DNA from: Reclinomonas americana ATCC 50394
Lineage: Eukaryota
NCBI GenBank assembly: GCA_048213135.1
Contig: PS015035.1
Location: forward strand, 83,363-122,734
DNA length: 39,372 bases
Reading direction: 5' to 3'
Below, in pieces: positions 106 through 39,372 of the stretch (within the stretch, counting starts at the first letter, position 1; each line of letters starts with the position of its first letter). The position numbers and the translations under genes are program-made. The notes below the pieces were generated by a model that saw only the letters and a program-made list of their open reading frames with translations, was not told where the DNA came from and did no database searches.

Positions 106-1680
106 CTACGACACCCACTCACGCGGATGCAGCTGGTGAGGTTGCGACGGAGTGTGTCTCCGCGCCGACGGCACTGGTGCGGCTGTCGGTGGTGGTGAGG
201 GTTGATCCCACGCAACAGCAAAGTCGTCGGCCGGTTGTGACAACATCTGGCATCGCACCGCCCACCTCAGCTCCTTGTGGCCACGCTGATCCTGCACCAG
301 GAAACGGTCGCGACTCCACACATCTTGCATGCGATGGTAGCTGGAGACCGGATCGTGTCGCCGACGGCTGCTGGACACGGACCTCACAGCGGCGGCGCTG
401 CCGAGTGGTCGTGAGGACAAACCGCCGTGAATGACACTTGCCGAGCCTGTCGAACAGGGTGAGGAGCGAGCAGACAACAGAGAAGGAGAGAGAGTGAGAG
501 AGAAACGCAACCTGGCGTGCCAGGTGCTCGTGACTGGCGGCTCTGCGCTGACGGAGGTCGCCGGCCCGCTGAGGCTGGTCGCTGCTGCGACTGAGGACCG
601 GGAGTGGGAATCCGCCGTGGTGGGCCGAGTCGAGAGACACCAACCTGCGTGTAAAAAACAGAAGGTCATCAGTCACAGGAGTACGTCCAATTGTTTCCGC
701 ACTGAAGCACACAAACCCCTCGATCCACCATGTCGTCTTCATAGTGGTGGTATTCCTCCTCGCCCTCCGACCGGTCGTCCACGTGCTCCGGTGTCACCAA
801 CCGATGACCGCTGCGTGGCGACGGCATCTCCGCTCTCCTCCTGAGCGCGGCATACATGTCCTCAACCTCGTTGTGCTGCTGACGCTGCGGCGATGATGAT
901 CCACGCTGACGTGAACTGCCGCTGCTGCCTGGTCGTTTGGAGGCGGACTTCTTTGAGCGTGTGCGACTGGCGGAACGCGGCCGAGGCTCGCCCTCAGCCT
1001 GGATGATGATTGGTGAGCGATTGCGACAATACCTCTGGCCAATGGTGCAGTGATATCTCGACGTACCGCGTTGCGTGATCGCACCGGCGGTCCGCGTGGC
1101 TGAATGTGCTGTGCCTGCTGTGCCGACGCGGGTCGCTTTCCTCCACTGCACAAGGCACCATCGCGTTACTCTCATGTGTTTCACGATGAAGCCAAAAGAC
1201 ACACACACACAATAGAGCACGCAACGAGTGTCGCCGCTGAGCGTGCAAGTGCGGCATCGGTGGCGCGCCCTCATCCAGTGCCGTTGGGTACGAGAGTGGA
1301 TGTGAGCCAAGGCTGTCGCCTGTGAGTGAGAGGGGCGGGCGTGAGTAGCCGACCACCAACAATGGATTCGTGTCGAACACGAACTCCCCCACCGCTCACC
1401 TGTGTGATCCGGCGGAGCGGTGCGTACGCGTCGCTCGTACGGGTCGTACGGATCGTAATAGTCGTCGTGCACTCGACCCTCATCACCATGGCGCCGCTCC
1501 GAGTCGTCAGACGAGTAGGTGTAATCCACATCGTCGCCTCGGTGGTGCGACTGATGATGACCACGAGATGATGATCGCGGACGCGATTCCATCTCGTGCG
1601 CGTGGTGGCGATGTGCTTGCGCCGCCGCCTGCTGATGGTGGTGCGGGTGGTGATGGTGGGGAAAGTTGAAGCCGCCAGAC
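106..1680 (-). CDS. HYLS1-like (hydrolethalus syndrome 1 C-terminal domain) centriole/basal-body protein; multi-exon, 5' end uncertain (gap 1746-1812)
   Basis: Five GT-AG introns join into one frame. The last exon encodes HDPVSSYHRMQDVWSRDRFLVQDQRGHKELRWAVRCQML, resembling the HYLS1_C motif (DxVxxYxxxxxxW...KELRWxVRxQML). The rest is low complexity. Confidence 0.65.
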
Positions 1681-2026
1681 TGTGTGCGTGACCGCAGTTG
1701 AGAATTGTGTGTGATCATTGTCGAACACATCAACACGCCAACGCTNNNNNNNNNNNNNNNNNNNNNNNNNNNNNNNNNNNNNNNNNNNNNNNNNNNNNNN
1801 NNNNNNNNNNNNGCTCACTGATCTCACAGGGTGGAGGCACGAGAGGCGGCGCGGGTGGCACTCGTGACCATGCAGGAGGTGCTGGTGAGCGGTGAAGTCG
1901 ACGAGCATCTCGCACGCATGCTCGACATGCGCCGATCGGAGCCCGAGTCGAGAAAGAGGTCGTGACACACGATGAGAAGCAAGAGACAGTTGTACTCTCG
2001 TTCTTGGCGGCCACTCGGCAAAACAA

Positions 2027-3891
2027 TCACCTCCGAATGCGACGCTTGCGGGGTCGCGGAGCGGATGGCACCGCACCGCCAGCTGCGGCGGCTGCCGCTG
2101 CAGCGGCTGCAGCTCCGGCCGAGCGACGTCGCGGAAACAGACGAATGGGAACGCCCTCCAACTCGAACTCATCGCGAATGGCGTTGGAGAGGAACTTGGT
2201 GGCCGACTCGGGGAATTCATCTGCCCCCAGATAGAAGACGGCAAAGGTCGGTGGTCTGGCCGTCACCTGCGTCACGTACTGCACGTGCAGGCCACTCTGC
2301 GCCAGTGGTCGCTCCACCAGCAGCGCACGAATGAATCGATTCAGTGGTGCGGTGGCGATGCGCTTGTTCCACTTGTCATACGTGCGCACCACCGTGTCCA
2401 TCAGCGACTGTGTGCCAGAGTGCGCAAGGCCACTCAGCGGTACCACCGGCACTCCGCGTGCCTGCACACGATCCAATCGCTCTCTCACGTACTTGAACAC
2501 TGGTTCGCGATCGGAGGACTCCTGCAGCAGGTCCCACTTGCTGACGCCAACCACCAGTGCCCGACCCTCTTCCAGCACCTGACGTATGAGCGTCAACTCC
2601 TCACGAGTCAGCACCTCATGCGCCTCCGTCAACAGCACCACCACATTGGCAAAATGGATCGCACGCAGTGCATCCTGGCGAGACTGCGTGTCCAACTGCG
2701 TGCCCATGGTCTGCGTAATGATTCGCCGACGCAGACCGGCCGTGTCCACCAGCAACAGCTCGCGCGATCCGTACCGGCAACGCAGCTGCACTGCGTCGCG
2801 TGTCACACCCGGCTGTGCGCCCGTGGCCACGCGCGAGAACCCGAGAAGGGCGTTCACCAGCGTGCTCTGTAGGAGAACGGGGAAGTGAGGCATCATGCAA
2901 AAGTCGCAAACACACACTCGTGCACACACACACACACAAACACACACCTTGCCGGCGTTTGGTCGCCCGATAATGGCCAGACGCAGCAAGTCCTCCTTCT
3001 CCGCCACGGGCAGCACGGTCTTGCGCGATGGTGGTCGCTGCATGATGGCCAGTGTTTCCGCACTGGTGCCCATTGCCGCGTGGTAGGCCTCGAAGTGTGG
3101 TCGCACGGCATCGGCGAGCGCTGCGAAGCCAAAGCCAGTCTCTGCGCTCACCTCGGCCGGTTCGTAGTCTCGGCGCAGCATGACACGCGCCACGTCGTTG
3201 TCATCGTACGACTCGGTGCCGGTGTCGCACTTGTTGAAGACGAGTTCGTACGGCACCGTCTGACTGCGCTGCGCCAACCACTTGCCAATGTGGAACTCGG
3301 AGGGCGTCAAACCCTCACGAATGTCGGCCACCAGCAGCACCAGGTTCGACGCACGGATGGCGTCCTGCACTTGGCTCTCGAGTGACGCCTATACGAGAAC
3401 GGTGAGAGAGTGGTACGCGCATCAAGAGCACGCATGCATGCATGCACGCAACAATGTCGTCGGCACCCGGTGCGTCAATCACGTGGAAACGCATGTTGCC
3501 GAGTTGCGCCACATCAGCTTGCCAGTCACGTGTGGTGCCTGCGCACACAGACCATGCATGGTGAGACTGAAGACACAGGCAGAGAGAGAAAGAGAGAGAG
3601 GCGACCAACCGGGCGTGTTGTTCACAATCGCATGCTGTGCGCCAACCAGGCGGTTAAAGATGGTGCTCTTGCCGACATTGGGTCGCCCCACAAGGCACAC
3701 CGTAAAGTCCTTCGGTTGTACAACCTGCGCCCACACGGATCGCGGGATCAGCTATTTCGTACACGGAGAGAAGAAAGAGAGAGAGCTGGATGCACCTCCA
3801 GCAGCGGCCTTGTGGATGCGGGTGGAGCAGGCAGACCACCTGAGGAGAACAGACGTGACACGCACAGCTGCAGACGTGCTCTCCACAGCAT
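2027..3891 (-). CDS. der: EngA/Der double GTPase, probably mitochondrion-targeted; 4 introns
   Basis: GD1 [26 protein letters not shown]2 GRPNAGKST..PGVTRD..DTAG..SKWD. KH-like end [23 protein letters not shown]-terminus [17 protein letters not shown] is presequence-like. Confidence 0.92.
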
Positions 3892-3948
3892 CGTCGTGTT
3901 GAATGATATGAATGAAGGACAAGTGTGCGTCCCACCACCAGCGAAGAG

Positions 3949-4950
3949 ATGAAACGCCGAGCGGGTATCGCCGGTCTCACACGAAAGCAACAGACAGAGG
4001 TGTGCTGCCGGTGCCTCTCTCCGTCTCCCTTGTCCACTCTCTCTCACACACGCTGACGAGCAGGAAAAGTTCAAGCGCGTGGGCGATGAGCTGGCCACCA
4101 GTCAGCGCACGCAGGTGAGAACCGTGCCTGTGACTCTGTTCCCAGTGTACATGCCCACCCACTCGCTCTTGCTGTGCGCGCGTCAGATGCTCGAGCAAAT
4201 GTCGTTCCTCAAGGGCAAGCTGGAGGAGTTTGCCGATCGCCACCGTGACGAGATTGCCGGCAACCCCGAGCTGCGTCGGCACTTTACCAAGATGTGCCAG
4301 CGCATTGGTGTGGATCCACTGGCCTGTTGCGTGGCATGAGGAAAAAGGCGCTCTTTCACACCCATTACTCACTGCCCTGGGCGTGATTAGCGAAAAAGGG
4401 CTTCTGGGCCGAGTTGTTGGGCGTCGGCGACTTTTACTACGAGGTGGCGGTGCGTGCTGCCGAGGTGTGTATGCACACGCGTGTTGACAATGGCGGCCTG
4501 ATGGATCTCGACGAGCTGGTCGACACGCTCAATCGACGCCGCTCACGAACGCAGCCAGAGGTTGTCTCTCTCTCTGCTCCTCTTGTCTCCTTTGCCACGC
4601 TGATGATCTCTCGGCGGTAGGTGGCGCGTCACGACGTGAAGCGGGCGATTGAGAAGCTGCGCGTGCTGGGCGGCGGTCTGCGCCTGCTCAAGATGGGCAA
4701 GCAGCACCACGGACGCACGCTGGTGCAGTCGGTGCCGCAGGAGCTGAACGTGGATCACCAGGCGCTGCTGCAACTGGCGGAGGAGCGCGGCTTCTTTACC
4801 ATGACGCAGGTGCGCGAGCGATTGCGGTGGGATGTGGAGCGCACGCGGCAGGCGCTGGAGCTGTTGATGCAGTCGGAGATGGTGTGGGTGGACGCGCAGG
4901 CGGCAGAGGAGGAGCAGTACTGGTTCTCGTGCTTCTTCACGTTTTCATGA
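3949..4950 (+). CDS. SNF8: ESCRT-II subunit VPS22/SNF8; 4 introns
   Basis: Spliced MKRRAGIAGL..LEEFADRHRDEI..FTKMCQRIGVDPLAS|KKGFWAELLGVGDFYYE..NGGLM..LVQSVPQELNVDH..VWVDAQ..YWF; stop TGA at 4948-4950. Confidence 0.95.
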
Positions 4951-7758: not shown

Positions 7759-7778
7759 NNNNNNNNNNNNNNNNNNNN

Positions 7779-7974
7779 GGGAGCATGCGTTGCGTCTCTT
7801 TGTCTCTCGGCTGTTCTGCTCTCACCCCCCCCCCCCCCCCCGACGAGACTGACTGCGTGTGTGTGTCTCTCTCGCAGGTACTACCTCGATCACCAGAACC
7901 GCCGTGGCGAGTACGTGTCGCAATGGTGGGATGTCGTCAACTGGAAGTGGGTGGAGGAATCGCTGAGCTCGTAA
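7779..7974 (+). CDS. Fe superoxide dismutase, last intron and last exon only (copy 1)
   Basis: [35 protein letters not shown], same as copy 2. Confidence 0.85.
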
Positions 7975-8185
7975 GACAGAAAGTCAACTGTACTCTTGCC
8001 ATCTCTCTCGTCTCAATCCTGCCGTCTTCTCGCGTGCGAGAAAGAAATACATCGGCACGATGATGTTGTTGTCGTGGGGGAGAAGAAGGGCGCCCGTCGT
8101 CGTCCGAGTGTGCAGTGGAAGCCACCACGGCGTACGTCTCTGTCAGTGTCTGTACGCGAATGCTTCGTGCTTTCGATCCGTATGC

Positions 8186-9287
8186 TCACGTCTGTGGTGG
8201 TGGAGGCGGAGGCGGCAGCGGCACGTTGCGCTGCGCAATCACGTCGGACCACGTGACATCGGCGGTCACCAGGTGCGCATGCACGTACAGCGGGTCGACC
8301 GCCGAGTCGGGACTGTGCGGTCGAACCACCACCGGATGTGCCAGTCGGCACGCTCGTGTTGTCGACTCCTCCAGAATGCGTGGCAGCTCCCCGCAAAAGT
8401 GCTCAAAGTGATCCACCCTGTCCTCCCACAGCTCCAGGTGCTCGAGTCGTGGAAACCTGCGACGGCCGTGAAGTGAGGGGCGACTTATAGTTATGGAAAA
8501 GGGCGACAACACGCAACAGGCTTGTGAGACGAGTCAGAGACTCGATCTTTTGCTGGAGCGTGTCGCGATAGTCTCCTTGCGACTTGGTATACAGTGCATG
8601 CGGTGCGATCTGCAGACTCTCCTCAAAGATCTCCAACAGCCGCTGGCGGCTCGACGACAAGCGACCTGTGCGCAAGCAACGTGAGTCCACATTCGATGCG
8701 GAACAGAGGGGCGCGAGGTGGCTGACCAGTGAGAACCACCGACAGGCTGTCGGGCTCGTCGAAGCGCTCACGAAACACCGGCAATGCCTGTTCGGCCACC
8801 GACTGAGACACAGAAGGACAACAACAACAACAGCGACGACGACGACGACGACTCACCGGACCGGGGAGGATCTCGAACGGATGTGAGATGGACTCCACCG
8901 CGCTCCACCAGCTCCGCACCGGGAACTCGCTGCCAGTGACCTGCGCCAACATGTGAGTGCGTGATCCGCTCACACACGAATGAATGCACACACGCAACTT
9001 GTCGATAGTACGCCAGACCTTCGTCGGGCAGGGGAGTAAGGGCGAGTGTGCCGTCAAAGTCAAACACCTGTGTTTGTGTTGTGCCGACGCGTCACTCTGG
9101 TGCCACAGTTGGACAAGAGGAGTGAGATGCACGACTGACCTTCAGAGTGCGAATGTCTGCGACGCACTGTGAGAACACTGATGACCGGCTCCGTTGCGAC
9201 AAGCGATGACAACGCACCTGCTAGCGGAACATTGTGAAAGTGCGATGCCTGTGGCTGCAGATGGCACTCCCTCGTGTCGCTGCTCAT
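8186..9287 (-). CDS. Swiss-Army-knife RNA-repair-like HAD domain protein (copy 1)
   Basis: Same exon structure and motifs as copy 2: FDFDGTL, SWW, VLTGR, WEDR..H. Confidence 0.7.
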
Positions 9288-9600
9288 CGATGATGNNNNN
9301 NNNNNNNNNNNNNNNNNNNNNNNNNNNNNNNNNNNNNNNNNNNNNNNNNNNNNNNNNNNNNNNNNNNNNNNNNNNNNNNNNNNNNNNNNNNNNNNNNNNN
9401 NNNNNNNNNNNNNNNNNNNNNNNNNNNNNNNNNNNNNNNNNNNNNNNNNNNNNNNNNNNNNNNNNNNNNNNNNNNNNNNNNNNNNNNNNNNNNNNNNNNN
9501 NNNNNNNNNNNNNNNNNNNNNNNNNNNNNNNNNNNNNNNNNNNNNNNNNNNNNNNNNNNNNNNNNNNNNNNNNNNNNNNNNNNNNNNNNNNNNNNNNNNN

Positions 9601-10431
9601 CCACCGCCGCGCAGCAGGTACAGTGCAGATTCTCTTCTCTTCTCACGCATGCATGCGTGTGTCATGACGCACTGTGTGGTGATGCAGCAGCGATCGATCT
9701 TCACGCTGCCGCCGCTCGACTACCCCATCGAGAAGGGCATCGGCAAGGTCATCTCGCCCACGCAGCTCGACTTCCACTACAACAAGCACCACAAGGCCTA
9801 CGTCGACAAGGGCAACGCACTGGTCACTGGTGTGTGTGTGTGTGGACATCGCGCACGCTCTCACCCGCTTCCCCGTCCTCACGCGCCACACACAGGCTCC
9901 AAGTTCGAGGGCAAGTCCGAGGTCGACATTATGATTGCCACCGCCGACGACGCCTCCAAGCGCGCCATCTTCAACAACGTCGCGCAGCACTGGAATCACT
10001 CTTTCTACTGGAAGTGCATGCACCCGTCGCCGGCGCCCATGTCGGAGCGGTTGCGGAAGCGGCTGGTTGACGACTTTGGCTCCGTCGAGGACTTCAAGCA
10101 AAAGTTTGCCGAGTCGGCCGTCAACAACTTTGGCTCCGGCTGGACGTGGTTGGTGGAGCACTCGCAGGGCAAGCTGCACATTGTCAACACCTCCAACGCG
10201 GCGAACCCGGGCGTCGAGGGCCACTCGCCGCTGCTGACGATTGATGTGTGGGAGCATGCGTTGCGTCTCTTTGCCTCTCGGCTGTTCTGCTCTCACCCCC
10301 CGAGAGACTGACTGCGTGTGTGTGTGTCTCGCAGGTACTACCTCGATCACCAGAACCGCCGTGGCGAGTACGTGTCGCAATGGTGGGATGTCGTCAACTG
10401 GAAGTGGGTGGAGGAATCGCTGAGCTCGTAA
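9601..10431 (+). CDS. Iron superoxide dismutase (5' end lost at gap; probable N-terminus at 12015-12075 on minus strand); 3 introns
   Basis: [62 protein letters not shown] and NA (rather than GG..NH and NQD) indicate the Fe type. Confidence 0.92.
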
Positions 10432-10631
10432 GACAGAAAGTCAACTGTACTCTTGCCATCTCTCTCTCTTATCCTGCCGTCTTCTCGCGTGCGAGAAAGA
10501 AATACATCGGCACGATGATGTTGTTGTCGTGGGGGAGAAGAGGGGCGCCCGTCGTCGTCCGAGTGTGCAGCCACGGTGTACGTCTCTGTCAGTGTCTGTT
10601 CGCGAATGCTTCGTGCTTTCGATCCATATGC

Positions 10632-11736
10632 TCACGTCTGTGTTGGTGGAGGCGGAGGCGGCAGCGGCACGTTGCGCTGCGCAATCACGTCGGACCACGT
10701 GACATCGGCGGTCACCAGGTGCGCATGCACGTACAGCGGGTCGACCGCCGAGTCGGGACTGTGCGGTCGAACCACCACCGGATGTGCCAGTCGGCACGCT
10801 CGTGTCGTCGACTCCTCCAGAATGCGTGGCAGCTCCCCGCAAAAGTGCTCAAAGTGATCCACCCTGTCCTCCCACAGCTCCAGGTGCTCGAGTCGTGGAA
10901 ACCTGCGACGGCCGTGAAGTGAGGGGCGACTTATAGTTATGGAAAAGGGCGACAACACGCAACAGGCTGGTGAGACGAGTCAGAGACTCGATCTTTTGCT
11001 GGAGCGTGTCACGATAGTCTCCTTGCGACTTGGTGTACAGTGCATGCGGTGCGATCTGCAGACTCTCCTCAAAGATCTCCAACAGCCGCTGCCGGCTCGA
11101 CGACAGGCGACCTGTGTGCATGCAACGTGAGCCCACATTCGATGCGGAACGGAGAAGCACGAGGTGGCTGACCAGTGAGAACCACCGACAGGCTGTCGGG
11201 CTCGTCGAAGCGCTCACGAAACACCGGCAACGCCTGTTTGGCCACCGACTGAGACGCAGTAGGACAACAACAACAACAGCGACGACGACGACGACGACGA
11301 CTCACCGGTCCGGGGAGGATCTCGAACGGATGTGAGATGGACTCCACCGCGCTCCACCAGCTCCGCACCGGGAACTCGCTGCCAGTGACCTGCGCCAACA
11401 TGTGAGTGTGTGATCCGCTCACACACGAATGAATGCACACACGCAACTTGTCGATAGTACGCCAGACCTTCGTCGGGCAGGGGAGTGAGGGCGAGTGTGC
11501 CGTCAAAGTCAAACACCTGTGTTTGTGTTGTGCCGACGCGTCACTCTGGTGCCACGGTTGGACAAGAGGAGTGAGATGCATGACTGACCTTCAGAGTGCG
11601 AATGTCTGCGGCGCACTGTGAGAACACCGACGATCAGCCCCGCCACGACAAGCAATGACAACGCACCTGCTAGTGGAACATTGTGAAAGTGCGATGCCTG
11701 TGGCTGCAGATGGCACTCCCTCGTGTCGCTGCTCAT
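10632..11736 (-). CDS. Swiss-Army-knife RNA-repair-like HAD domain protein (copy 2); 6 introns including a 17-nt exon
   Basis: Spliced MSSDTREC..PLAD|IRTLK|VFDFDGTLALTPLP..|..RSWWSAVESI..VVLTG|R..TK..DT..K..LELWEDRVDHFEHF: HAD motifs DxD, TGR, K and EDR. 3' end uncertain. Confidence 0.72.
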
Positions 11737-17024: not shown

Positions 17025-17044
17025 NNNNNNNNNNNNNNNNNNNN

Positions 17045-19073: not shown

Positions 19074-19104
<31 letters not shown>

Positions 19105-22416: not shown

Positions 22417-25400
22417 TTCCGACTCGGGAACGACGGCGACACTGGCCACCTCCACCGACATGCCCGGCTCCAGACCCTGCAACAACGACACCAGCACCAG
22501 TAGCTCCTCTGCCGACGAGCACGGAATGCCGTGTCTTGAGCGCAGCTCCGTGGGGATGACACGCGCCAGCCAGCGGATGAGTGGGCCATCGGCGGCGTGG
22601 TGATACAGGCGGAATGCACGGACACCCAGTCCTGGTTCCGGCGTTGGCGGCTTGCTCCACGAGCTCTGCGAACTCTGCGAGCCCATCGACTGTACACTTG
22701 GGCGCCGCACAGCGCTGTGCGTGGGAGCAAACGTGGATTGGAACTGTGGCGCCATAGGTGGCTGCGGCGGTGGCAAATCAAAGCCGTGCGAGCCGCTGAA
22801 CAGCGCTCGTGAGGCCGGTTCGCCAGCGGGTGGAGGTGGCGTCTGTCGCTGATACACAGGCAGGTAGGCGGGACCGTTGCGCGCCATATCCTTGGCGAGC
22901 GCCACATCTCGCGGTGGGTACGCGGGCTCCGGCGACGCATTCACCACTGGCGACATGGCGGACCCAGGAGCATCTGTGCGCCAAACGAGAACAGTGAATC
23001 ACAGTCGTGTCTATGTGTGCGTGCGACACCATGCACACGCGCACCATCAAAATCGCGCAAAGCAAACAGCATCTGGTCCTGCAACGTGGCCGGGATGGAC
23101 GACTCCAGATCACTGCGCACCTCAATGTCGCTCGGCTTGGTATTGTTCACTGTGTGCCGAGAGCAACAGGACAAGGTTGTTAGCACTCTTTGTGCACGCA
23201 CACACACATGGACACATGCATGGCGACGCAACGCTGAGGCGTGGGTGAGAACATGGAGCCAGCACCGCTCGATGCCTCCGTCCAGCTCGCACTGCCGGGA
23301 CTTGGTGCTGCGGGAAGGGCGGCTATGGAAGCAGCATTGGGTCGCGCTGGAGCCGAGTGCGGTGGTCGCGCGGCTGTGCTGGCCTTTGGAGGTGACGGCG
23401 ATGCCTCGGCAGTCATGTTATACGGCGCCGTAGGCCGGGCCATGGGAGAACCGTAGAACTGCATCACTGGTGCCGGGTCGTCGGCCACCGCCGCTGCGTC
23501 GGCCGGCGACGGCTGCGACAATGGCGGTGGAATGGGAGACGACTCGGTGCCTCCTCTTGTCACTGGCTCTGACATTGCTGGTGGCGCTGATGGTTGTGGT
23601 GGAGGAGGCGGCTGGAGTTGCAGCAGTGGAGCAGGTTCCGAAAACTCGAGTACAGACGATCTGGCTGCACTGCCTGGCTCCTCCACATCTTGCTCTGCCG
23701 TTGCTGTTGCCGACGAGGCAGCAGTGGCAACTGCACCACCTTGTGGTGTTTCCGCGTCGACAAAGCGGTGCACCGTTGCTACACAAACAACAATGTAAGA
23801 CGCTGACCGGGGAAACGGAGCACATGCAGGCACGCAACGTTCACTCGTGCCGGCCACAGCTGGCGGAAGCGTTGCAGACTTGCGTCGCGGTTGCGGGGTC
23901 TGCTCTGCGGCTGCCTGAGCCACCAGTGCAGGATTGAGCACGGGATCGCGAGCTCGCAGTGCGCTCTACAACACGCGTGCGTGTAAGTCATTGTCCGTGA
24001 CCACCTGGAAAGCCATGGGAAAGCGAGTTGTAACCCACCAGTTCCTCCAGGCACACCACTTGATGCGGCTGCAGGAACACACCGTAGCCGGGAGCGCAGT
24101 CAAAGTACCGCGTTCCATTCCACGAGCCGTCATTGCGGCCATCTGTGTGCATCGTTNNNNNNNNNNNNNNNNNNNNNNNNNNNNNNNNNNNNNNNNNNNN
24201 NNNNNNNNNNNNNNNNNNNNNNNNNNNNNNNNGGTCAGCGACAGCAAAAGAGAGAGAGAGGGAGGGAGAAGCGATCGATAACGCAACTCGGCCCCTCCAA
24301 CTCCACTCCGATCCAGATGCTTGGCGCAAAGCGCACCTCACCCAGGTAACGCACAACGCCGACCAAGTCGCGCTCAGTGACCACCACTGCGTCGCCAACA
24401 ATGGGTAGTGTGCGGTCGGCACGCGGTCCGTATCGCTCCACAATCCAGGGATCACCAAACTGAACGCGCCTGATGCCCGAACGCGATGAGAAACAGAAGC
24501 AAGAAACCACAAAAAAATAAGACACAAGACAAACCTCAACAAGTCGACNNNNNNNNNNNNNNNNNNNNNNNNNNNNNNNNNNNNNNNNNNNNNNNNNNNN
24601 NNNNNNNNNNNNNNNNNNNNNNNNNNNNNNNNNNNNNNNNNNNNNNNNNNNNNNNNNNNNNNNNNNNNNNNNNNNNNNNNNNNNNNNNNNNNNNNNNNNN
24701 NNNNNNNNNNNNNNNNNNNNNNNNNNNNNNNNNNNNNNNNNNNNNNNNNNNNNNNNNNNNNNNNNNNNNNNNNNNNNNNNNNNNNNNNNNNNNNNNNNNN
24801 NNNNNNNNNNNNNNNNNNNNNNNNNNNNNNNNNNNNNNNNNNNNNNNNNNNNNNNNNNNNNNNNNNNNNNNNNNNNNNNNNNNNNNNNNNNNNNNNNNNN
24901 NNNNNNNNNNNNNNNNNNNNNNNNNNNNNNNNNNNNNNNNNNNNNNNNNNNNNNNNNNNNNNNNNNNNNNNNNNNNNNNNNNNNNNNNNNNNNNNNNNNN
25001 NNNNNNNNNNNNNNNNNNNNNNNNNNNNNNNNNNNNNNNNNNNNNNNNNNNNNNNNNNNNNNNNNNNNNNNNNNNNNNNNNNNNNNNNNNNNNNNNNNNN
25101 NNNNNNNNNNNNNNNNNNNNNNNNNNNNNNNNNNNNNNNNNNNNNNNNNNNNNNNNNNNNNNNNNNNNNNNNNNNNNNNNNNNNNNNNNNNNNNNNNNNN
25201 NNNNNNNNNNNNNNNNNNNNNNNNNNNNNNNNNNNNNNNNNNNNNNNNNNNNNNNNNNNNNNNNNNNNNNNNNNNNNNNNNNNNNNNNNNNNNNNNNNNN
25301 NNNNNNNNNNNNNNNNNNNNNNNNNNNNNNNNNNNNNNACGCTCGCGCTGAATAGTGCGTTCACGAGCAGCCGCGGCCTCATCAACCACCACGGCCTCTT

Positions 25401-28400
25401 CCGTCTGCTCCTGGGTAAAATCGCCGGCATCCTCCTCGGTGACCGCCGCTTCTCCTGCTGCCGCAGAAGCTGAGGCTGACGGAGCAGGAGCACCGCTCTC
25501 GTCCACCTCCCAGCCCTCCAGCATGCGCCGCTCTTCCGAATTCAGCACCGCGCCAGCACCCGCACCATTTTGCTGTTGCCGTTGCTGTTGCTGAGGTGGT
25601 GCGCGTGCAGCGCCGGTCGAGGACGATGCTGCCTGAGAGGGCGGTGGTGAGCCGCGCGTCCGTGCCGCCAGCTCCTGCGCGCGCCGATCGGCTTCCTTGG
25701 TTTGCGTCAAGTAGCGATCCAACTCGCGCGCAATGGCAGTGAACAGATTGCCGCGGGCACAGCGCAGGCAGTAGCGCAGCAGCTCTCGCTGTCGATCGAG
25801 TTGTTGATCCTGCAAAAGAAAGAACGACTCAGCACACGGATTGTTGAGAACGCGAGTCTGCAGTGCCACCAACCATGCCATCGAGACCCAGTTCAGTGTG
25901 GGCCACCTCAAACGCTGCAAACGACTGCAGCTGATCGTACACGCGATCGTACTCCTCGTGCGTGGTGAAAAAGTAGCACGTCTCCAACACTTGGTGATGC
26001 ATGGTGATGCAAAAGTCCTGTCGTATGAGAGCGCATGAGACAAGACGATTCACGCTTGGTCTGGGCGACCCCACCCACCTGCATGTCCTCGCGTGTGCGC
26101 GACTGTGAGCCCTCGCCGCGCATGTAGTCGTAAATGTGCTCCCACGGAGTGCGATCGCCTTCACGACCTGCATTGGCCAAGTCAGTACACATTCATGAAG
26201 CCAGCTGTGGTGACATGCACGCAACGAAGGAAGCGTCTGGCATCCTCACGCGCATTGAACGCTGCAAAATTGAAGGGTCCCGCCTCATGCGGATGCACCA
26301 AATGATCGTCGGGCACGTATGCAGCCGGTCCAGGGCTGTCGCGGCCAGGCAACCACGTCTCCTGCCGCACATCGCGACCTGCGACCCGTTTTTTCGTGAG
26401 CAAACATTTCTTACAAACGGCAGCGTGGACAATCACTCTCACCGACAACACTGGTCTTGACCGGCGATCGCACCGACGAGCGACCCGCACTGCGAGCGTC
26501 GGCAGAGCTGGCGCTGTACGACAGACCATCGGCGCTGCTGGCCACGGCATCGACGCGACGGCTGGAGGAGCTTGACGGCGGTGCAGACCGGCTGCGTGAT
26601 GGCGGCGAAATCTTGAGTGACGTGCTCCGCCCTTCAGAGCGGGCTGGCGGTGCAGCCAAATGATTCGGCGACGACGTGACGGACGCGGGACCGACTCGGC
26701 GTTTCGGCTGCACCGGTGACGGACGCTCTCCACCCCACGACCGTCGGTTCTGCTGACGAGCACGGCTGGCGGCGGCCGCAGCAGAGGCAAGCGACGGCTG
26801 CTCATGAGATTATTGTGAATGTATGAGTCCAACCAGCACAACGACACGGCGGCGAAAACGATACAACGCACCCCAGACGAAGTGCCTGCGGCGGGCGCAG
26901 TCGGAGCCGGCGCGTTGGTGTCGTCAGCGGCAACATTGGGAACGCTCGTCGGACGCTGTTGCGGCGACGACTTCCGCTGCTGCGTGGTGCGCGACGCACC
27001 CGGTGACTGTTTCGACGACTGCAAGCATGTCAGTATTCTGGCCAAACACATTCAAATCGACCACTCTCTGTCACGTACCGTGGCAGACGCGGGGCGACGC
27101 TGCTGTCGATCGGGTGCCGACGGTGAGCGACTCACCCGACGCTGACCCTGCCCGCTGCCGGACGAGCCCGACGACGGTGAGCCGGCTGAGCTCGGTCGCG
27201 GATTGGCGGCTGGGATCGTGTCACGCGGCTTGTTGTATGTCTGTGCAGGCACTGCCAAATGGCCTGCGTTTCGCTGTTGTTGTTGTTGTTGCTGCTGCTG
27301 TTGCTTGGTGGCGGGGCCCGGTGAAGCCGACGTGCTTCGCCGAGGGATGCCACTGCTTCCGGTACTCCGTGCAGGTGACGGCGTCTGCTGTGCGGAGGTG
27401 GAGGAGGCACCACGAGCGGCACCGCCGGCACTTGCACTCCGCTGATGCGCACCGCCGGCGGCTTGCGCAGATGAAGGAGGCGGCGTGCGGTTGGCTGTCT
27501 GAGACGTGCCACGCGACGCCGGACGCATGGTTTGACCCAAAGATTGCTGCGGCTGCTGCTTGGCAGGCTGTTGTGGCTCTGCAGGTGGCGTCTGCGCCGG
27601 CCCGCCACTCTGTCGCGCACCACCGCTCATCGCGCGCGTCGGCGGTTGCTGTGGCTGCTGAGCTGGCGGTTGCTGTGGTTTGCGGGTGGCGTACAAATCG
27701 TCGGCAGACTCGTCGAGTGCAGCGCGCTGCGCTGTGGATGCCGGCAACGGTGCTGGCTTGGCTGGTGTAACGGGAGGCGCATTGTCCTCAACAACAGGAG
27801 AGACAGCGCCTGCCGGTTCCGGCTGCGCCGGCGCTGCCGCAGACACCGGCGGCAGAGCAGGAGGAGGCGGCGGAGGAGGAAGAGCGGGCTGGACTGGTTG
27901 CGCACGCTGCGGTCCGAGCGCGAGAGTCGGCGCAGTTGGCGGCGCAGGCAGAGGCGGCGGAAGAGGTGGTGCCTGTTGAGAACTCGACGGAGCACCGCCT
28001 GCAAGCGCGGGCAACGGTTGCTTCTGCGAGAGCTGGCGCGGGACGGCAGGTGAAGCAGCAGAGCCGGCAGCCGCGGCAGTCGACGACAGCGGCGGCAGCG
28101 GCTTGGCCGGAGTCGCTCCGTCGCCATACGACAGCTCGAGAGTGGCATCACCAAAGGTGACGTCCTCCAGTGCAGTGGTGGGCGTCGTCGTATCCAGCAC
28201 CACTGGCTGCGGCGTGCCGAGTTGTGATGGTTGGGTGGGCGACACGACCAGCGCAGCCACAGTGTCGGTCTGTCGCGGTCGTCAGATGAGAAAAGAAAGA
28301 AGGATAGCAACAATTAAGGAGGGGTTACGCACATCGTATCCCGACATGATTTCAGACGAATGAGCAGCCAGGAGGCCACTGCCGGCTGCGGCCGAGCCGG

Positions 28401-30972
28401 TGCGCGTAATGGAACCGGCGCTGTTACCGCGCATATTCCCGTGCTGCATCTACACAGTCAGCACACATGCATTTGTATCCTTCCACATATGCACGACCCA
28501 ACAAACGAAACCTGTTTGACTGGCGTGGCGCGATCGACAACAACAATGTCTTCGGGCGAAATGACTGGCACGGCGGCGGCAGATGCTGACGATGATGAGA
28601 CGAGTGGAGGGACTGTGACACCTGCGGCGGCGGTGGCGTTCGGTGGCAGTGGTGCAGCGACGTGCTCGTGCATGGCGGCTGAGAGCATGCGGTCGGAGGA
28701 CAGGCGCTTGGGCGCCGCCAGATCCGTGTCCAATGGCGGCATCACGGCCACTGGCTGTCGCGGCGGTGACACACTGTTGGCGGTCACCGGCTCACGCTCC
28801 GACGGGAATGCCGACTGCTGCGACGACGGTTGCAGCGCTTCGGAGCTCACAGAACGCGGCAGCGCCGACTTTTCCGCAGGCTTCGAAGGACTCGGCGGCA
28901 GCACCGTCAGCGGAACCTGCGCACAATGTGAGATGGCGCAAAGATGATACCATTCGCAATCGGCGTCGACGCACCTGTGCGGCAGCACTGTCGACAGTGG
29001 CCGTTCGCAGCGGCTGCGCCTTGGCACCAGCAGCCGCCAGCGCCAGAGCCGACGCCGACTGGTGCAACGGCGGGAGTGACGGAGGTCGCTCGTGCGTGCT
29101 GTGATGAGTCGAGTGGTGCGAGGCGACCGAGGCAGTGGCCTGCACACACCAAAATCAGCCCATTGAAATGAAAAACAGAGAGAGACGAGTCGTAAAACGC
29201 AACTCGACGGATGCCAGTGGCGTCATCCTCGGAATCCGAGAACGCCATGTCAAACGACTCCATGCCGGCCTCGGACTCCTCCTGGTCGCGTGAGTTGAGG
29301 CGCGGCAGGTTGCGACGATTCTCTGGTGCCGGCGACGGAATCGACAGTGGAGGCACGACTGAAGGACGTGCACCAGCGGCTGCTGCCGCCGCAGCAGCAG
29401 TGGAGCGTGGTGGAGGCACGTCGAGAGACGGATCGCTGCGTGACTCGACCAGCGGCATCACAGCCGTGACGACGGGCATGCTCAATCCACTGCCCGACGC
29501 ACCGCCATTGGCACCTGCGGCGGCGGCGGCGGCGGTGGCGGTAGTCGCACCGGCATTGTTGGTGCCTGTGAGTGCGGCCACGGTTTCGTCGGACGCTGCC
29601 GGTGCGCCATTCGCCGGACGCCACGGTCTCCGTTCCAAGTACAGTGTCACCTGCGCGCACGAGAGTTGAGAACAACAAATAGAGAGAGCGGGTGGGGGAG
29701 CGATTGCACGACGTCGTCAACAAACCCGATGCAAGTACGGACCAAACACCTCGCGCTGACTGATGATGAGCAGCTCGGTGCACAGAATCGACACGTAGTA
29801 GGGTGCTGACGGGGGCAGCGCCAGAGCCTGGGTCACCTCGGCATCGGTGCGCGGTGGTATGGCAGCGCGTGGCGGAGCACCGGGTGGCGGAGGGAACATG
29901 GATGGACCAACACTGCACGACGACGACAGCAAGTGGGCATGCAAGCGGGACGAGAAGAATGGAGTAAAAAACACGCAACGCCATGGCCACCAGATCCGGC
30001 GACATGCGAGTCACTTGCTTGGCGGCCGCCACCTCGCGACACAGAGTGCACACGGCACACAGCACGGCGCGGTGCGGAACCGGGAGCTCGTTAACGAGCG
30101 CCTGCACGCGCGGCAACAGCGCTACCAATGTGTCACGCCGCTTCGTGTCGTTGCGCTTGGCCGCTCGCACCGGCTTGTACGCCTCTGCACGATCGGTCGG
30201 TCAAACAACGGGCGCGCGCGATACGCCAAGACGACAGCCAACCCCACACACAACTGGCAATCTCCTCCCACTGCGTGAATCGATCGGCTCCCATGAGCGT
30301 GCCCGGAATGAGCTGCAGAAACAGCTTGAGCACCGATCCCAGCGTCTGCGCATCGACCGCTCCCGAGTCCACCGCATGATACAAGCCCGCATCGATCTTG
30401 GCGCGCAGCTCGCGAATGTGCGTGCGACGACCGAGCTCACGCAGAAAGTTGCGCTGCGTCGGGCCTGCTCGTCGTACGCCACCACCGATCAGCACCATGA
30501 CAGCAATCGAAAGAAAGAAACAAGGAAAATGGCAACTGACCCTTCGCGCGCAGCACCTGCATGAGGAAGATGAGGAAGCGCGGGACGACATAGTCGGGCG
30601 ATGAGAGGTCGTCGCCGGAGGGCGAGTTGACGGCCGAGGTGGCGGCCGAGGAGGGCGATCGATTGCCGCGATTGTCGACCATGGCGGGCGATGAGGCGGC
30701 CGAGTCGCCGGCGGCATTGGCAGACGATGAAACGGCGCGTTCCTCGGCGCGTTCGCGCTGGAGAATGCGATCGAGCGCAACGCCAAACACCAGAGGTTGC
30801 GAGGCCGCGTCCAGACCGTTCAGACCTGCTGCTGCTGCGCCACCAGCGGCGGCCGTGGTCGCGCCAGGACGCGCCTTGGCGTCGGCACTCTGCTCACAGC
30901 CCCTGTGTGTGTGTGTGCGCGTGTGTGCGTCAGCGAAGGGAGCGAAGTGTGTGGGAAAACGATTTTGAACAT
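22417..30972 (-). CDS. Very large RhoGAP-domain ... CAP-Gly-domain protein; ~19 introns, interrupted by gaps, start uncertain
   Basis: RhoGAP ~29745-30790: VFGVAL..VPRFL..FLRELG..LKLFLQLIP..LPVPHRAVL..RMS..AVGPSMF. CAP-Gly ~24065-24400: GVVRYLGEVRFAPSIWIGVELEGP|NGRNDGSWNGTRYFDC..GVF. Long Pro/Ala/Ser/Gln linkers. Confidence 0.72.
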
Positions 30973-32499: not shown

Positions 32500-35230
32500 T
32501 TACTTCTTCGACCAATCGCCCACCAAGCGAGCCAAACGCAGCTTGGACACCTTGCGGCGGTGCACCTTGCCAATGTTCTTCTTCTTGTTGGCCGCGGTCT
32601 GGACCGTCGGGTTGGCGGCGCGGAAGCGCTCGTAGTTGAGGGCCTTGCGCTTGAGGGTCTTGGCGTACGGGTTGAGGCGCAGCATCGTCATCAGGTTCTT
32701 CAGTGGGTTCTTCTTCAGCTGGAAGTTGCGCTTTGGCTTCTCGCGAGCGCGCAGCTTCGACTGCACTTCGTCGGAGTTGATGATGCGGTCCAGGTCAGCA
32801 TTGTTCATCGTCGGTCGCGGCAGGCTGCCAGTCACAACAACAACGACCATGAGTGCGTGGGTAGGGAATAGAGAAGGGAAAGCAATAGTCGTCGTCAACG
32901 CACCGGTATCCAGACTTGAGGGTAGCCTTGGCCTTCACGGTGCCGTACAGCTTGTTCAGGCGCTGGAATGCCGGCTCAGTCCAGATGATGAAGCGGCCGA
33001 GGTGGCCACCCGGGGCGAGCTGCAGCAGGTTCAGGCGGTTGACGTTGGCGACCTCCACACCAGGAATGTTGCGGAAGGCCTTCGCAATGCCCTTGTCGTT
33101 GGCGTACACCACCAAGGGTCCGCGGCGCTGCACGTAGCGGCGGTTGCGGTACTTGCCCTTGCCGGCGCGCACCTTGCGGCTCGAGTCGACACGCTTCACA
33201 TCGCTAAACGCATGCAGGCGCTTCAACACAGCCACAGCCTGCTTGGTCTTGCGGATGCTCTCCGCCTGCTTGTCCAGCACCAACGGCACCTCCGGGATGC
33301 GCGAGATGCGGTGACCGCGAGCGAGCACCAGAGGCGGCACCTACACGCACAAGCAAAACAANNNNNNNNNNNNNNNNNNNNNNNNNNNNNNNNNNNNNNN
33401 NNNNNNNNNNNNNNNNNNNNNNNNNNNNNNNNNNNNNNNNNNNNNNNNNNNNNNNNNNNNNNNNNNNNNNNNNNNNNNNNNNNNNNNNNNNNNNNNNNNN
33501 NNNNNNNNNNNNNNNNNNNNNNNNNNNNNNNNNNNNNNNNNNNNNNNNNNNNNNNNNNNNNNNNNNNNNNNNNNNNNNNNNNNNNNNNNNNNNNNNNNNN
33601 NNNNNNNNNNNNNNNNNNNNNNNNNNNNNNNNNNNNNNNNNNNNNNNNNNNNNNNNNNNNNNNNNNNNNNNNNNNNNNNNNNNNNNNNNNNNNNNNNNNN
33701 NNNNNNNNNNNNNNNNNNNNNNNNNNNNNNNNNNNNNNNNNNNNNNNNNNNNNNNNNNNNNNNNNNNNNNNNNNNNNNNNNNNNNNNNNNNNNNNNNNNN
33801 NNNNNNNNNNNNNNNNNNNNNNNNNNNNNNNNNNNNNNNNNNNNNNNNNNNNNNNNNNNNNNNNNNNNNNNNNNNNNNNNNNNNNNNNNNNNNNNNNNNN
33901 NNNNNNNNNNNNNNNNNNNNNNNNNNNNNNNNNNNNNNNNNNNNNNNNNNNNNNNNNNNNNNNNNNNNNNNNNNNNNNNNNNNNNNNNNNNNNNNNNNNN
34001 NNNNNNNNNNNNNNNNNNNNNNNNNNNNNNNNNNNNNNNNNNNNNNNNNNNNNNNNNNNNNNNNNNNNNNNNNNNNNNNNNNNNNNNNNNNNNNNNNNNN
34101 NNNNNNNNNNNNNNNNNNNNNNNNNNNNNNNNNNNNNNNNNNNNNNNNNNNNNNNNNNNNNNNNNNNNNNNNNNNNNNNNNNNNNNNNNNNNNNNNNNNN
34201 NNNNNNNNNNNNNNNNNNNNNNNNNNNNNNNNNNNNNNNNNNNNNNNNNNNNNNNNNNNNNNNNNNNNNNNNNNNNNNNTAACAGCAATGAGTCTCTGTG
34301 GATTGCATAAAAGAGAGTGGATGTGAGGGAAGATAAAACTCAACAGCCGAGGCGGCCAGAGCCGAGGTCACGGCGTAGCGCTTCTGGTTGAGGTTGATCT
34401 TGCGGTGCCAGCGGCGCCAGATCTTGGTGGGTGCGAACATGCGACCCTTGCGGCACATGTTGCCGAAGGCGCCCTGACCAGCGCGGATGGTGCCACCACC
34501 CGAGACACGGGGAATACGAGCCACGGCGCGACCAGTGCCCCACGACTCGGCAGAGTGCTGGTGACCAGCCTTCTCCGAGACAGCGTATGCCTGGCGGCTG
34601 TTCTTGCGCATGTTGGTGTGCACAAAGTGCACGATATCCGTGCGGATCGGCGCGACAAAGACCGACGGCAACGGCACCGACTTCTTGGTCGGCGTCGCCC
34701 GAGGGCCATCAAACGCGCGGAACACAGTCACCTGCGGACGAGCAGCGGCCTGCACACACACACAGTCAGAAGGGAGGGGCGTGTGTGTGCGCCATGCATG
34801 CACATGCACAACCACAAGAGGCAAGCCCACTCTCACACGAGGTACCCTTTCTCACTGCCGCACACACATGTACAAGGAGGGGGCATTGTGCAAAGGCGAG
34901 AGAGAGAGAGATGGAGTGGATAGACAGGGGGAGAGAGAACCATGCCATGTCGACTCACTCGCACACACACACACATCATCATGACCTTCCATCAATCTCT
35001 GCCATCTCGCTTCAAGCACATGCACGCATAACAACAACAACAACGGCCGCACACAGAAACGGCCGAGAAACCGCGCGTAGCACTCGTGCAGACCACGCGA
35101 CATGTCACACATGCAACGCACACACAGGCACACAGGCACAACCAAGCATCCACTGTTCTTTTTTCGTTTTGTGCGCTGCCCCCCTCCCATTCCCGCTACT
35201 GACACGCCCAGCCAAACCCACCGTTGACAT
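32500..35230 (-). CDS. RPL4: 60S ribosomal protein L4 (uL4); exons 35230-35222, 34749-34345, 33340-32904, 32824-32500
   Basis: [79 protein letters not shown]. Confidence 0.97.
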
Positions 35231-36931: not shown

Positions 36932-38505
36932 GGTGCGAAGGATCGTGCGGAGGAGGAGGGGNNNNNNNNNNNNNNNNNNNNNNNNNNNNNNNNNNNNNNN
37001 NNNNNNNNNNNNNNNNNNNNNNNNNNNNNNNNNNNNNNNNNNNNNNNNNNNNNNNNNNNNNNNNNNNNNNNNNNNNNNNNNNNNNNNNNNNNNNNNNNNN
37101 NNNNNNNNNNNNNNNNNNNNNNNNNNNNNNNNNNNNNNNNNNNNNNNNNNNNNNNNNNNNNNNNNNNNNNNNNNNNNNNNNNNNNNNNNNNNNNNNNNNN
37201 NNNNNNNNNNNNNNNNNNNNNNNNNNNNNNNNNNNNNNNNNNNNNNNNNNNNNNNNNNNNNNNNNNNNNNNNNNNNNNNNNNNNNNNNNNNNNNNNNNNN
37301 NNNNNNNNNNNNNNNNNNNNNNNNNNNNNNNNNNNNNNNNNNNNNNNNNNNNNNNNNNNNNNNNNNNNNNNNNNNNNNNNNNNNNNNNNNNNNNNNNNNN
37401 NNNNNNNNNNNNNNNNNNNNNNNNNNNNNNNNNNNNNNNNNNNNNNNNNNNNNNNNNNNNNNNNNNNNNNNNNNNNNNNNNNNNNNNNNNNNNNNNNNNN
37501 NNNNNNNNNNNNNNNNNNNNNNNNNNNNNNNNNNNNNNNNNNNNNNNNNNNNNNNNNNNNNNNNNNNNNNNNNNNNNNNNNNNNNNNNNNNNNNNNNNNN
37601 NNNNNNNNNNNNNNNNNNNNNNNNNNNNNNNNNNNNNNNNNNNNNNNNNNNNNNNNNNNNNNNNNNNNNNNNNNNNNNNNNNNNNNNNNNNNNNNNNNNN
37701 NNNNNNNNNNNNNNNNNNNNNNNNNNNNNNNNTATGGCGGGCGGATTCGGAAATTTGTGGCTGCATGTCGTCGTATTACTTTATGTTTTGGTTTTTCCTC
37801 TTCATTGCCCGACGAGCCGTCCTGTTCTGGGTCTCTTGCCTCCCTTCTTTTCTGCAGTGTTCTCTCCTATCGCTCCGTTGGTGTCAGTACAATTGAGTGT
37901 TACTCAAATCAAACTTGGTGTGGACGATCGACATTATAGAGGGCGAGCTCTTCACCAGTGCTGTGATGACGCAACTTCGATGTCGACACGTCGGTGACCC
38001 ATGCGGGCTCTTCTGCCACCGCCATTGGTGCTCATGCCGAACGGCACGTACTCGACTTGGTCACGTGCCCCGCCACCACGTCTGGGTGACGATTGCGACG
38101 ATGGCGTGCCTCCAACAGCAGCGCAAAAGTTCGAACGTTACAAGCGGATACAACCAATGCACTTTCGCCACAATTGACGAGAAAAGTCAGCGCGACACCA
38201 GTTTCCGTCGCCTTGCGCTCTCCCAGTGATCGCCACGCGACACTGCAGTGCATAAACACGCACAGGAGGCTGGCGCGCATGCAACAGGCGCTTTCGCTTG
38301 GAAGAAACAGGCACTGTCGATTCTCGAGTCGACCGTTTCTCCTGACCGGCACACGCCCAAAAAAATGACCGTTCCAACAAAGCCACTTTTTCCTGTCGTC
38401 TTCGTGAGAGCGCAACCGCACTCCGACTGACCCTACACGCACTCTAGCAGGAAACAAGCACTCTTTCTCTCCACTTTCTCCTTTGTCTCTCTCACTCGTG
38501 CTCCG

Positions 38506-39372
38506 ATGACGCCCTCCGCTGTTCGCTGGATGCTGAGCGCAGCACTCCTCGTGCTGCTGTCGATGGTGGCCTTCTCCGCCGCGTCACCATTCGACATGGA
38601 CGTGCACCTCGACGACAACATTGACTTGCGTTGCGTCTCTCTCGCCCTCCCGACGACGATCGCCATGTGTGCAGGAATCCTCACTTGTTGTGTCGTCGTC
38701 ACACGCAGCGCTGTTTGCCGAACTGGCCGACAACCTTGTGATCAACGAGGCCGATCTGGAGGCGGTGGAGGCCGAGGCGCCGGAGCCAGCGCCCGTGTGC
38801 CCCGCCGGTGTGCTCTCGTGCACTGTCGTACACGCGACGGCGGTGATGGACGACGATTTGGATGCGTTCTCGGAGAACGACGACACAGTGATCGACTACA
38901 GCGAGCTCAACGAGTTCCCGGCCGTCACTGGTGAGTCCTCCCTCCGTTACACACACATGTGCCTTGACCGCTTGCTCACTGCTGTTGCGCAGAGGCGGAG
39001 GTTGTCGTCGCCGAGGTGGAGGTGCAGCAGCCGGAGAAGGCCGCCGCCGCGGAAGAGGTGCAGATGGAGGTGGAGGTGGAGCAGGAGGAGGCGGAGGAGA
39101 GCGCGGAGCAGATGCAGACGCTGGACGAGTCGTTCGACGACCTCGACGCTGCGCTCGACAGTATTGCGGCCGATGAGGTGCTGTTGGAGATGCTGGAGGC
39201 CGACGCGTCCGAGTTCGACGACTTGCTGGAGGAGGAGGAGGATGAGGAGGAGGAAGTCGAGGAAGAGGAGGAGGAGGAGACTGAGTTTGATGCCGCCTAC
39301 ATGTTCAACGAGTTGGACTTTGAGGAGGAGGAGGAGCAGGCAGAGGGTGACTGGGCGCAGACGGACGACATC
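38506..39372 (+). CDS. Signal-peptide-bearing, highly acidic protein, 3'-partial
   Basis: MTPSAVRWMLSAALLVLLSMVAFSAA then Glu/Asp-rich exons. Two introns (donors 38630 and ~38931) keep the frame open to the window end. Confidence 0.7.

Follow-up and report, generated by a model that had tools for sequence, protein, structure and literature searches.

Background

The G at the last exon position (-1) of the 5' splice site is reportedly compensated by intronic donor positions, as described by Burge and Karlin and by Carmel et al. in 2004, and strict GTGCG(T/C) donors are said to have been found in Mamiellales green algae by Irimia and Roy in 2008. The present work concerns a stretch of 39,372 nucleotides of Reclinomonas americana ATCC 50394 (contig PS015035.1, positions 83,363 to 122,734 of the forward strand), which is referred to as the window. 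An abundant second class of 5' splice site (donor), N/GTTG(C/A/T)GT, where the slash marks the cut, was confirmed in the genes of this window, and this class, referred to as class 2, is strongly tied to a base other than G at -1.

Shifted and bulged registers of U1 pairing have been proven in human cells, and the validated noncanonical registers together account for 1.5% of 201,541 human sites, according to PMC4856993. Offset U1 pairing is known only as a rare human exception and is hard to study there. Changes in the U1 arm itself are also known, as Entamoeba combines the donor GUUUGU(U) with the U1 sequence AACAAAC, and Mastigamoeba combines GUACGU with ACGUAC; changed arms are reported so far only for these two and perhaps for Physarum (10.1101/2022.06.08.495308). 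As offset registers are already known, class 2 differs from them in its scale (about one intron in four in the window), in having an invariant motif, and in excluding G cleanly from the exon end. Literature text searches, which covered part of the matching papers and no supplements, found no description of a GTTGCGT donor class, and an earlier genome paper may therefore contain one.

Class-2 donors and their exact junctions

All counts were obtained from this single window, which includes 14 N gaps (4,942 N) and has a G+C content of approximately 60% excluding the gaps; its gene content is eukaryotic and tightly packed, with many short introns. The 18 donor heptamers listed by the first-pass annotation were all present where it had placed them and on the same strands, and direct look-up agreed that 17 of the 18 lack G at -1. 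Three additional GTTGCGT donors, 7789(+), 8517(-), and 8998(-), are copies of 10260(+), 10963(-), and 11447(-), respectively, in a tandem duplication. Thus, 21 class-2 sites were obtained, of which 18 are independent.

For each junction, it was determined whether the unspliced exons on either side of the intron abut on the homologue. In the case of SOD 10260(+), the upstream exon ends at position 73 of the Sod_Fe_C profile and the downstream exon starts at position 75, the split codon being position 74. Similarly, positions 36 and 38 of the CAP_GLY profile flank the junction at CAP-Gly 24287(-), with the split codon at 37. The exons around RPL4 34344(-) match residues 3-132 and 133-277 of human uL4, so that residue 132 abuts 133, and no gap arises when the spliced model is aligned with a profile built from 50 uL4 sequences. 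For SNF8 4326(+), the upstream exon ends at residue 57 of 3cuq_A and residue 2 of the downstream exon corresponds to residue 60, the split codon being residue 58. The earlier claim that conserved motifs fix these four donors was thus upheld, each being exact to the nucleotide by protein alignment. This exact abutment established cleavage directly before GTTG(C/A)GT in four independent genes plus one duplicated copy. Splicing restores the frame exactly in SOD, SNF8, CAP-Gly, and RPL4, and all 21 class-2 sites begin with GT. Sliding of the boundary by one base was also considered, and it is impossible where the base at -1 is not G.

As controls, junctions with other donors were examined by homology. 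The DDX54 model, with six junctions, aligns without gaps to a profile made from 50 DDX54 proteins, in agreement with Pfam, and four uL2 junctions fit the uL2 profile, the first of them showing a gap of one residue. The junctions uL4 32903(-), Der 3609(-), and Der 2947(-) were also exact. All 13 homology-exact junctions outside class 2 carry G at -1.

The class-2 introns are listed below with coordinates, strand, the last three exon bases, the donor, and the basis of the call.

447..511 (-): cag/GTTGCGT; gene finder only; the sole class-2 site with G at -1
1146..1225 (-): ctc/GTTGCGT; gene finder only
3389..3452 (-): Der gene, att/GTTGCGT; consistent with the Der profile, not exact
4326..4390 (+): SNF8/VPS22, cct/GTTGCGT; exact by alignment to 3cuq_A
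7789..7877 (+): SOD copy 1, tgc/GTTGCGT; WEH-A-YY junction as in copy 2
8457..8517 (-): cct/GTTGCGT; gene finder; duplicate of 10963
8941..8998 (-): caa/GTTGCGT; gene finder; duplicate of 11447
10260..10334 (+): Fe/Mn SOD copy 2, tgc/GTTGCGT; exact by the Sod_Fe_C profile
10903..10963 (-): cct/GTTGCGT; recovered without any donor model and with the intron-only donor model
11390..11447 (-): caa/GTTGCGT; gene finder
21273..21332 (+): cat/GTTGCGT; intron-only donor model; the donor-blind run took an in-frame GT 9 nucleotides upstream
21556..21630 (+): gcc/GTTGAGT; gene finder
23150..23232 (-): agc/GTTGCGT; gene finder
23779..23838 (-): aac/GTTGCGT; intron-only donor model; the donor-blind run took an in-frame GT 6 nucleotides upstream
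24143..24287 (-): CAP-Gly gene, cga/GTTGCGT; exact by the CAP_GLY profile; N gap inside
26168..26225 (-): ttc/GTTGCGT; gene finder
29140..29203 (-): RhoGAP gene, cga/GTTGCGT; gene finder
29913..29979 (-): RhoGAP domain, ggc/GTTGCGT; upstream exon ends at profile position 137 of 148
30185..30254 (-): cca/GTTGTGT; gene finder; RhoGAP profile position 83 upstream and 93 downstream, with an insertion
33341..34344 (-): RPL4/uL4, gct/GTTGAGT; exact by human uL4; N gap inside
38630..38708 (+): tgc/GTTGCGT; gene finder; no in-frame alternative GT within 30 nucleotides

For the Der site at 3452(-), the spliced model aligns with the Der profile from end to end, and the junction falls in a variable loop with a six-residue gap. 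The exon downstream of 29979(-) is too short for detection by Pfam. The site at 30254(-), the sole GTTGTGT, is ambiguous, with an in-frame donor T/GTGTGTG 3 nucleotides downstream. The lengths of introns 24287(-) and 34344(-) cannot be read off because N gaps lie inside them.

The tandem duplication covers 7780-9293 and 10250-11748 and consists of the 3' end of the Fe/Mn SOD gene (+) plus a neighbouring gene (-) of unknown family. The introns of the two copies are near-identical, with two GTTGCGT donors per copy, and both copies are interrupted by N gaps.

Gene models and intron set

An early gene finder using only codon usage and any GT..AG pair of 35-400 nucleotides was too noisy. The introns were called with a donor-blind Viterbi gene finder, which used codon usage, the composition of the intron body, the acceptor region, and intron length, with the donor defined as GT only. 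This run gave a noisy output of 21 genes and 79 introns, 13 of which begin with GTTGNGT, and at four claimed sites a neighbouring in-frame GT was chosen instead. In a second run, a learned donor mixture restricted to intronic positions was added, so that the base at -1 was unbiased; 77 introns were obtained, and all claimed sites having a complete intron were recovered. The curated set, in which the models were corrected where homology demanded, contained 72 introns, or 66 independent introns after six duplicated copies were removed. Dubious gene-finder introns (13693, 13949, 14185, 30970, 34838, 34974, 9623, and 23044/23029) were excluded from the curation. Neither the exons of the homeobox-like gene nor RhoGAP exon 3 nor the exons near 26225 gave a usable Pfam match.

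Abundance and dependence on the exon base

GTTGCGT occurs 22 times on both strands, 2.3-fold more than the 9.5 occurrences expected (standard deviation 3.0), and none of 100 dinucleotide shuffles reached 22. Of these occurrences, 18 serve as curated donors on the coding strand, as compared with 1 of the 68 occurrences of [ACT]GTGCGT. The first-pass annotation had put class 2 at 18 of about 70 introns; the 18 independent sites stood, while the total was adjusted to 66 independent curated introns, so that GTTGNGT accounts for 27%.

The association between the donor motif and the -1 base, which the annotation had proposed for testing, was strong among the introns of the window. G was present at -1 in 1/18 GTTGNGT donors and in 42/48 other donors (Fisher p = 6e-10, 66 independent introns), leaving 6 of 48 other donors without G, as against the approximately 4 of 54 estimated earlier. 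When only homology-exact junctions were considered, the values were 0/4 and 13/13 (Fisher p = 4e-4), and with the domain-supported junctions added, they were 0/7 and 22/23 (Fisher p = 4e-6). In the donor-blind run, 1/13 GTTGNGT introns and 36/66 of the rest had G at -1 (p = 0.002), the latter fraction being diluted by false introns. Conversely, of the 23 donors in the curated independent set that lack G at -1, 17 are GTTGNGT. An unsupervised mixture was also fitted to positions +3 to +9 of the 79 donor-blind introns, and a GTTGCGT component with a weight of 0.23 separated from a GTGnG component. The Bayesian information criterion favoured two components (1510.8) over a single one (1533.4) or three (1567.9).

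Features of the class-2 introns

Positions +1 to +4, +6, and +7 of the class-2 heptamer are fixed by definition, and at +5 the 18 independent sites have C (15 sites), A (2), or T (1); +8 is G in 10/18. The exon end shows no consensus at -3 to -1, whereas the other donors have C, A, and G at these positions in 22, 24, and 42 of 48, respectively. The recognition information of class 2 is all within a near-invariant intronic heptamer, and the exon end is unconstrained.

Among the 16 independent class-2 introns with complete sequence, the 3' end is CAG in 13 and TAG in 3. Class-2 introns do not differ from the others in length (median 65 vs 69), acceptor triplet, or phase, as expected if one spliceosome handles both. 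A strict CTRAY branch-site-like motif was located 7-48 nucleotides from the 3' splice site in 5/16 class-2 and 17/47 other introns, the rest having looser variants. On the basis of their GT and AG ends and of the reading frames restored in the four genes named above, the class-2 introns are regarded as genuine major (U2-type) GT-AG introns with a second donor class, N/GUUGCGU. Minor (U12-type) introns have the 5' end RTATCCTT and a TCCTTAAC branch site near the 3' end. This type was rejected, as all class-2 introns begin with GTTG(C/A/T)GT and none has a minor-type donor. Moreover, U12-type introns make up 0.36% of human introns according to PMC4856993, far below the 27% share of class 2. Introner-like copies were rejected as well, as no common intron-body sequence was seen by eye.

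GCATG, mostly as TGCATG, occurs within the first 35 nucleotides of 5/16 class-2 introns (3452(-), 4326(+), 23232(-), 23838(-), and 26225(-)) and 0/47 others (p = 6e-4 in a post hoc test). It could represent an intronic enhancer, extended pairing, or shared ancestry. Seven donors have T at +3 without the full heptamer, namely 3609(-), 4561(+), 6404(+), 15252(+), 28511(-), 29725(-), and 36427(+), with the motifs GTTGGT, GTTGTC, GTTAGC, GTTTCGT (twice), and GTTTGT (twice). G is retained at -1 in 6/7 of these; thus, the full heptamer is not needed once G is present at -1.

Two of the four GTTGCGT heptamers unused in the models, 31214-31220(-) and 37969-37975(-), lie upstream of or outside the called coding sequence. 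The one at 31220, just upstream of the start region of the RhoGAP gene, could begin an intron of the 5' untranslated region.

Pairing with U1 and competing explanations

As the first-pass annotation had noted, the word G-(G/T)-T-G-N-G-T is common to both classes, which are cut one base apart. In each class the cut precedes the first GT of the word, as a one-base shifted U1 register predicts. We tentatively favour a reading in which class 2 is recognised by a one-base shifted U1 register and the cut is set later, with the help of an adapted U1 arm or of proteins. Under this reading, U1 would read the same seven-letter word, G-(G/U)-U-G-N-G-U, in both classes, and in class 2 the intron G+1 would replace the exon G-1 opposite C9 of U1. 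The position of the cut would be settled at a later stage, on handover to U6 and U5, at the GU that comes first in the word; U6 would have to reach G+6 and U+7 by looping out a single U. Such an accommodation of an extra base by U6 is required under every model, as follows from general knowledge of U6 pairing. Because the standard U1 arm pairs too weakly alone, the model needs the additional assumption that an arm adapted to GUGCGU-type donors, or proteins, would assist the pairing. The earlier suggestion of mainstream shifted or bulged U1 pairing was accordingly narrowed. G at -1 is depleted in class 2 (1/18, where the background frequency of G preceding GT in coding sequence is 0.297, P = 0.015), and since a bulged register would still gain from G-1, the shift was favoured over the bulge; the standard arm, however, is predicted to form no stable duplex.

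Several observations weigh against the shifted register as the whole explanation. Duplex energies were calculated with naked-RNA parameters and an assumed U1 arm. With the standard arm, AUACUUACCUG, the median for the best class-2 duplex in any register was -1.15 kcal/mol, with extremes of -5.6 and +0.5, as compared with medians of -7.8 kcal/mol for GTGNGT donors and -5.8 for the remaining donors; the shift beats the canonical register at 16/18 class-2 sites, with all energies weak or positive. The C at +5 in 15/18 sites exceeds the matching +4 C in GTGNGT donors (7/19, p = 0.007). This excess is not predicted by a pure shift, and it also means that class 2 is more than the ordinary donor carrying an additional T, contrary to what had been claimed. 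The exon lacks the shifted 'CA' that would be expected, A being found at -1 in 4/18 class-2 sites and at -2 in 24/48 other donors. In addition, N/GUGCGU is almost never used even though its pairing with U1 would be at least as good as that of N/GUUGCGU; thus, the strength of U1 pairing alone does not explain the rule. With a hypothetical arm constructed here and adapted to GUGCGU, AUACGCACCUG, the class-2 median in the shifted register reached -7.3 kcal/mol, and such an arm would explain the preference for C at +5 in this model. An adapted arm is nevertheless less likely beforehand, because GC-rich lineages with GYGCGY-type or +4C donors keep the standard U1 arm, as described in 10.1101/2022.06.08.495308. 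Furthermore, at 13 of the 18 independent sites class 2 was called by the gene finder and from intron-like sequence rather than from homology or RNA, and all of the evidence comes from one 39-kb window.

The same weakness of the standard arm, which forms no stable class-2 duplex in any register, would be expected if a dedicated or remodelled U1 variant with a 5' arm matching GUUGCGU (e.g., ACGCAAC) existed beside the standard U1 or replaced it. Perfect pairing would then read class 2, and the exon base would be irrelevant. The heptamer is near-invariant (GTTGCGT in 15/18, with the extra G at +8 in 10/18) and more uniform than the ordinary donors, as is usual where a site has a guide of its own to match, and the gain in pairing obtained with AUACGCACCUG points in the same direction. 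There are also precedents, as co-evolved arms occur in Entamoeba (ACAAAC) and Mastigamoeba (ACGUAC), and Physarum reportedly has both a standard and a modified U1 (10.1101/2022.06.08.495308). In the same source, however, arm changes are rare, and Thecamonas and Micromonas, which have donors C-rich at +4, keep the standard arm. Moreover, AUACGCACCUG is hypothetical, and there is no U1 gene in the window, where an Rfam scan at gathering thresholds gave no match and hence neither a U1 nor a U6 gene. We therefore regard a dedicated U1 as plausible but doubtful. A broader form of this idea, which we consider rather unlikely, is that the major spliceosome uses two parallel 5' splice-site codes, one dependent on the exon G and one consisting of the intronic seven-nucleotide GUUGCGU with its own U1 variant (ACGCAAC) or a remodelled U1/U6. 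If true, a quarter of the intron positions would be freed from exon constraint.

It is less probable still that the same U1 keeps to its normal register, the additional U at +2 or +3 forming a bulge, and that U6 bulges the same U. Class 2 does resemble the ordinary donor plus one inserted U, the predicted energies are similar to those of the shift, and U6 would need a bulge under any model; human examples of +2/+3 bulge registers, predicted as well as validated, number a few dozen, with 68 predicted sites (PMC4856993, table 3). Yet G-1 would still pair with C9 of U1 and should be favoured as in 42/48 ordinary donors, and it was found in 1/18; the absolute energies with the standard arm are also near zero. 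Recognition largely independent of U1 pairing, in which a protein, or U6/U5 directly, would read GUUGCGU, possibly together with the downstream GCAUG, seems improbable. The very weak predicted U1 pairing and the GCATG enrichment described above, itself a post hoc result, are in its favour, but the common word G-K-U-G-N-G-U is what U1 pairing predicts and the GCATG signal concerns five introns only. To our knowledge, no candidate factor for such a reading of GUUGCGU has been described. Finally, the class could be an artefact of hand or automatic gene modelling, with the true junctions at neighbouring GTs. The 13 sites called without homology, the in-frame alternative GTs within 30 nucleotides of several sites, and the four sites where the donor-blind run chose a neighbouring GT would fit an artefact. 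This is nevertheless very improbable, as five junctions are exact by alignment, the alternatives are mostly non-consensus GTs, and the heptamer is over-represented, with 18/22 copies at intron starts on the coding strand.

Other genes in the window

The following genes were identified by homology.

1813-3891 (-): Der GTPase, mitochondrial-type, double-GTPase Der/EngA, with four introns and a short N-terminal extension
SNF8/VPS22
DDX54
Fe/Mn SOD, two tandem copies
CAP-Gly protein
RhoGAP protein
Ribophorin II
RPL4/uL4
RPL8/uL2

The top matches of the Der gene at 1813-3891(-) are alphaproteobacterial, with identities of 38-40%; it presumably encodes a mitochondrial ribosome-assembly factor and may be usable as a lineage marker. 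The top database identities were 73% for a uL4 exon, 65% for a DDX54 exon, and approximately 70% for a uL2 exon, with 80% over a short fragment. Among 80 metagenome loci, the top uL4 locus showed 68% identity, and an exact 50-mer from the window gave no match to metagenome contigs. These relatives are too distant for orthologous introns to be compared.

Three introns have a length that is a multiple of three and no in-frame stop, namely 4115-4186(+) of 72 nucleotides, 2867-2947(-) of 81 nucleotides, and 35909-35992(+) of 84 nucleotides. As these read through openly, gene finding based on open reading frames misses them and homology alone reveals them. In the case of ribophorin II, pieces were found on opposite strands, 16354-17023(-) and 17047-17546(+), flanking a 20-N gap at 17025-17044. 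The C-terminal domain was matched with an E value of 4e-11, and weak matches to the third domain were obtained on both sides of the gap. This flip of strand may reflect a mis-oriented contig in the scaffold. A homeobox-like gene at 15102-15536(+) has two introns and an unusual third helix (…WKIRNFFSNKR…), and its single exons were not detected by Pfam.

Implications

An organism in which approximately one in four introns uses an invariant donor offset by one base would be a natural system for splice-site questions. Such questions include what determines the position of cleavage once U1 has left, how U6 handles the extra base, and why a G at the exon end is normally needed. In addition, gene finders trained on GTNNGT donors would mis-model approximately a quarter of the introns in the genome, and since a wrong donor usually leads to a frameshifted protein prediction, the class is also of practical concern.

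Comparison with known systems

The class-2 donors agree with the compensation of the -1 G in that the intronic part is nearer to consensus when G-1 is missing. They differ in that a motif longer by one base is used rather than a better match to the hexamer, [ACT]/GTGCGT being used in 1/68 occurrences. The ordinary class of the window (G/GTGCGT and its relatives, with CTGAC-like branch sites) resembles the GTGCG(T/C) donors of Mamiellales. The two sources consulted on those donors mention no GTTGCGT class, and the window has many more introns per gene and proteins without a close database match.

Compared with the co-evolved donors of Entamoeba and Mastigamoeba, as described in 10.1101/2022.06.08.495308, class 2 similarly has an extended and near-invariant intronic motif in which +3 is U and the seventh position also counts. 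In those organisms, however, nearly all introns share a single motif, and introns are few in Entamoeba, whereas two offset motifs occur here in intron-rich genes.

In the human bulge +2/+3 register (Roca et al. 2012; Tan et al. 2016, PMC4856993, figure 1C and table 3), one extra U lies between GU and the remainder of the donor, as in class 2. A benefit from G-1 is predicted there, whereas G-1 is found in 1/18 class-2 sites, and only the 68 human sites mentioned above are predicted. The shifted +1 register (Roca and Krainer 2009, as described in Tan et al. 2016, PMC4856993) likewise has an exon end other than G, and after GU-N the donor continues as usual; the test oligonucleotide used there was ACA/GUCAAGUAUA, as compared with the form N/GUUGCGU in the window. 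In the human case, G+1 lies opposite C9 of U1 and the cut site is defined after U1 leaves (PMC4856993), and the same is proposed for class 2. Class 2 differs from these human sites in that its predicted duplex with the standard arm is near zero, its motif is near-invariant, and it accounts for 18/66 introns in the window.

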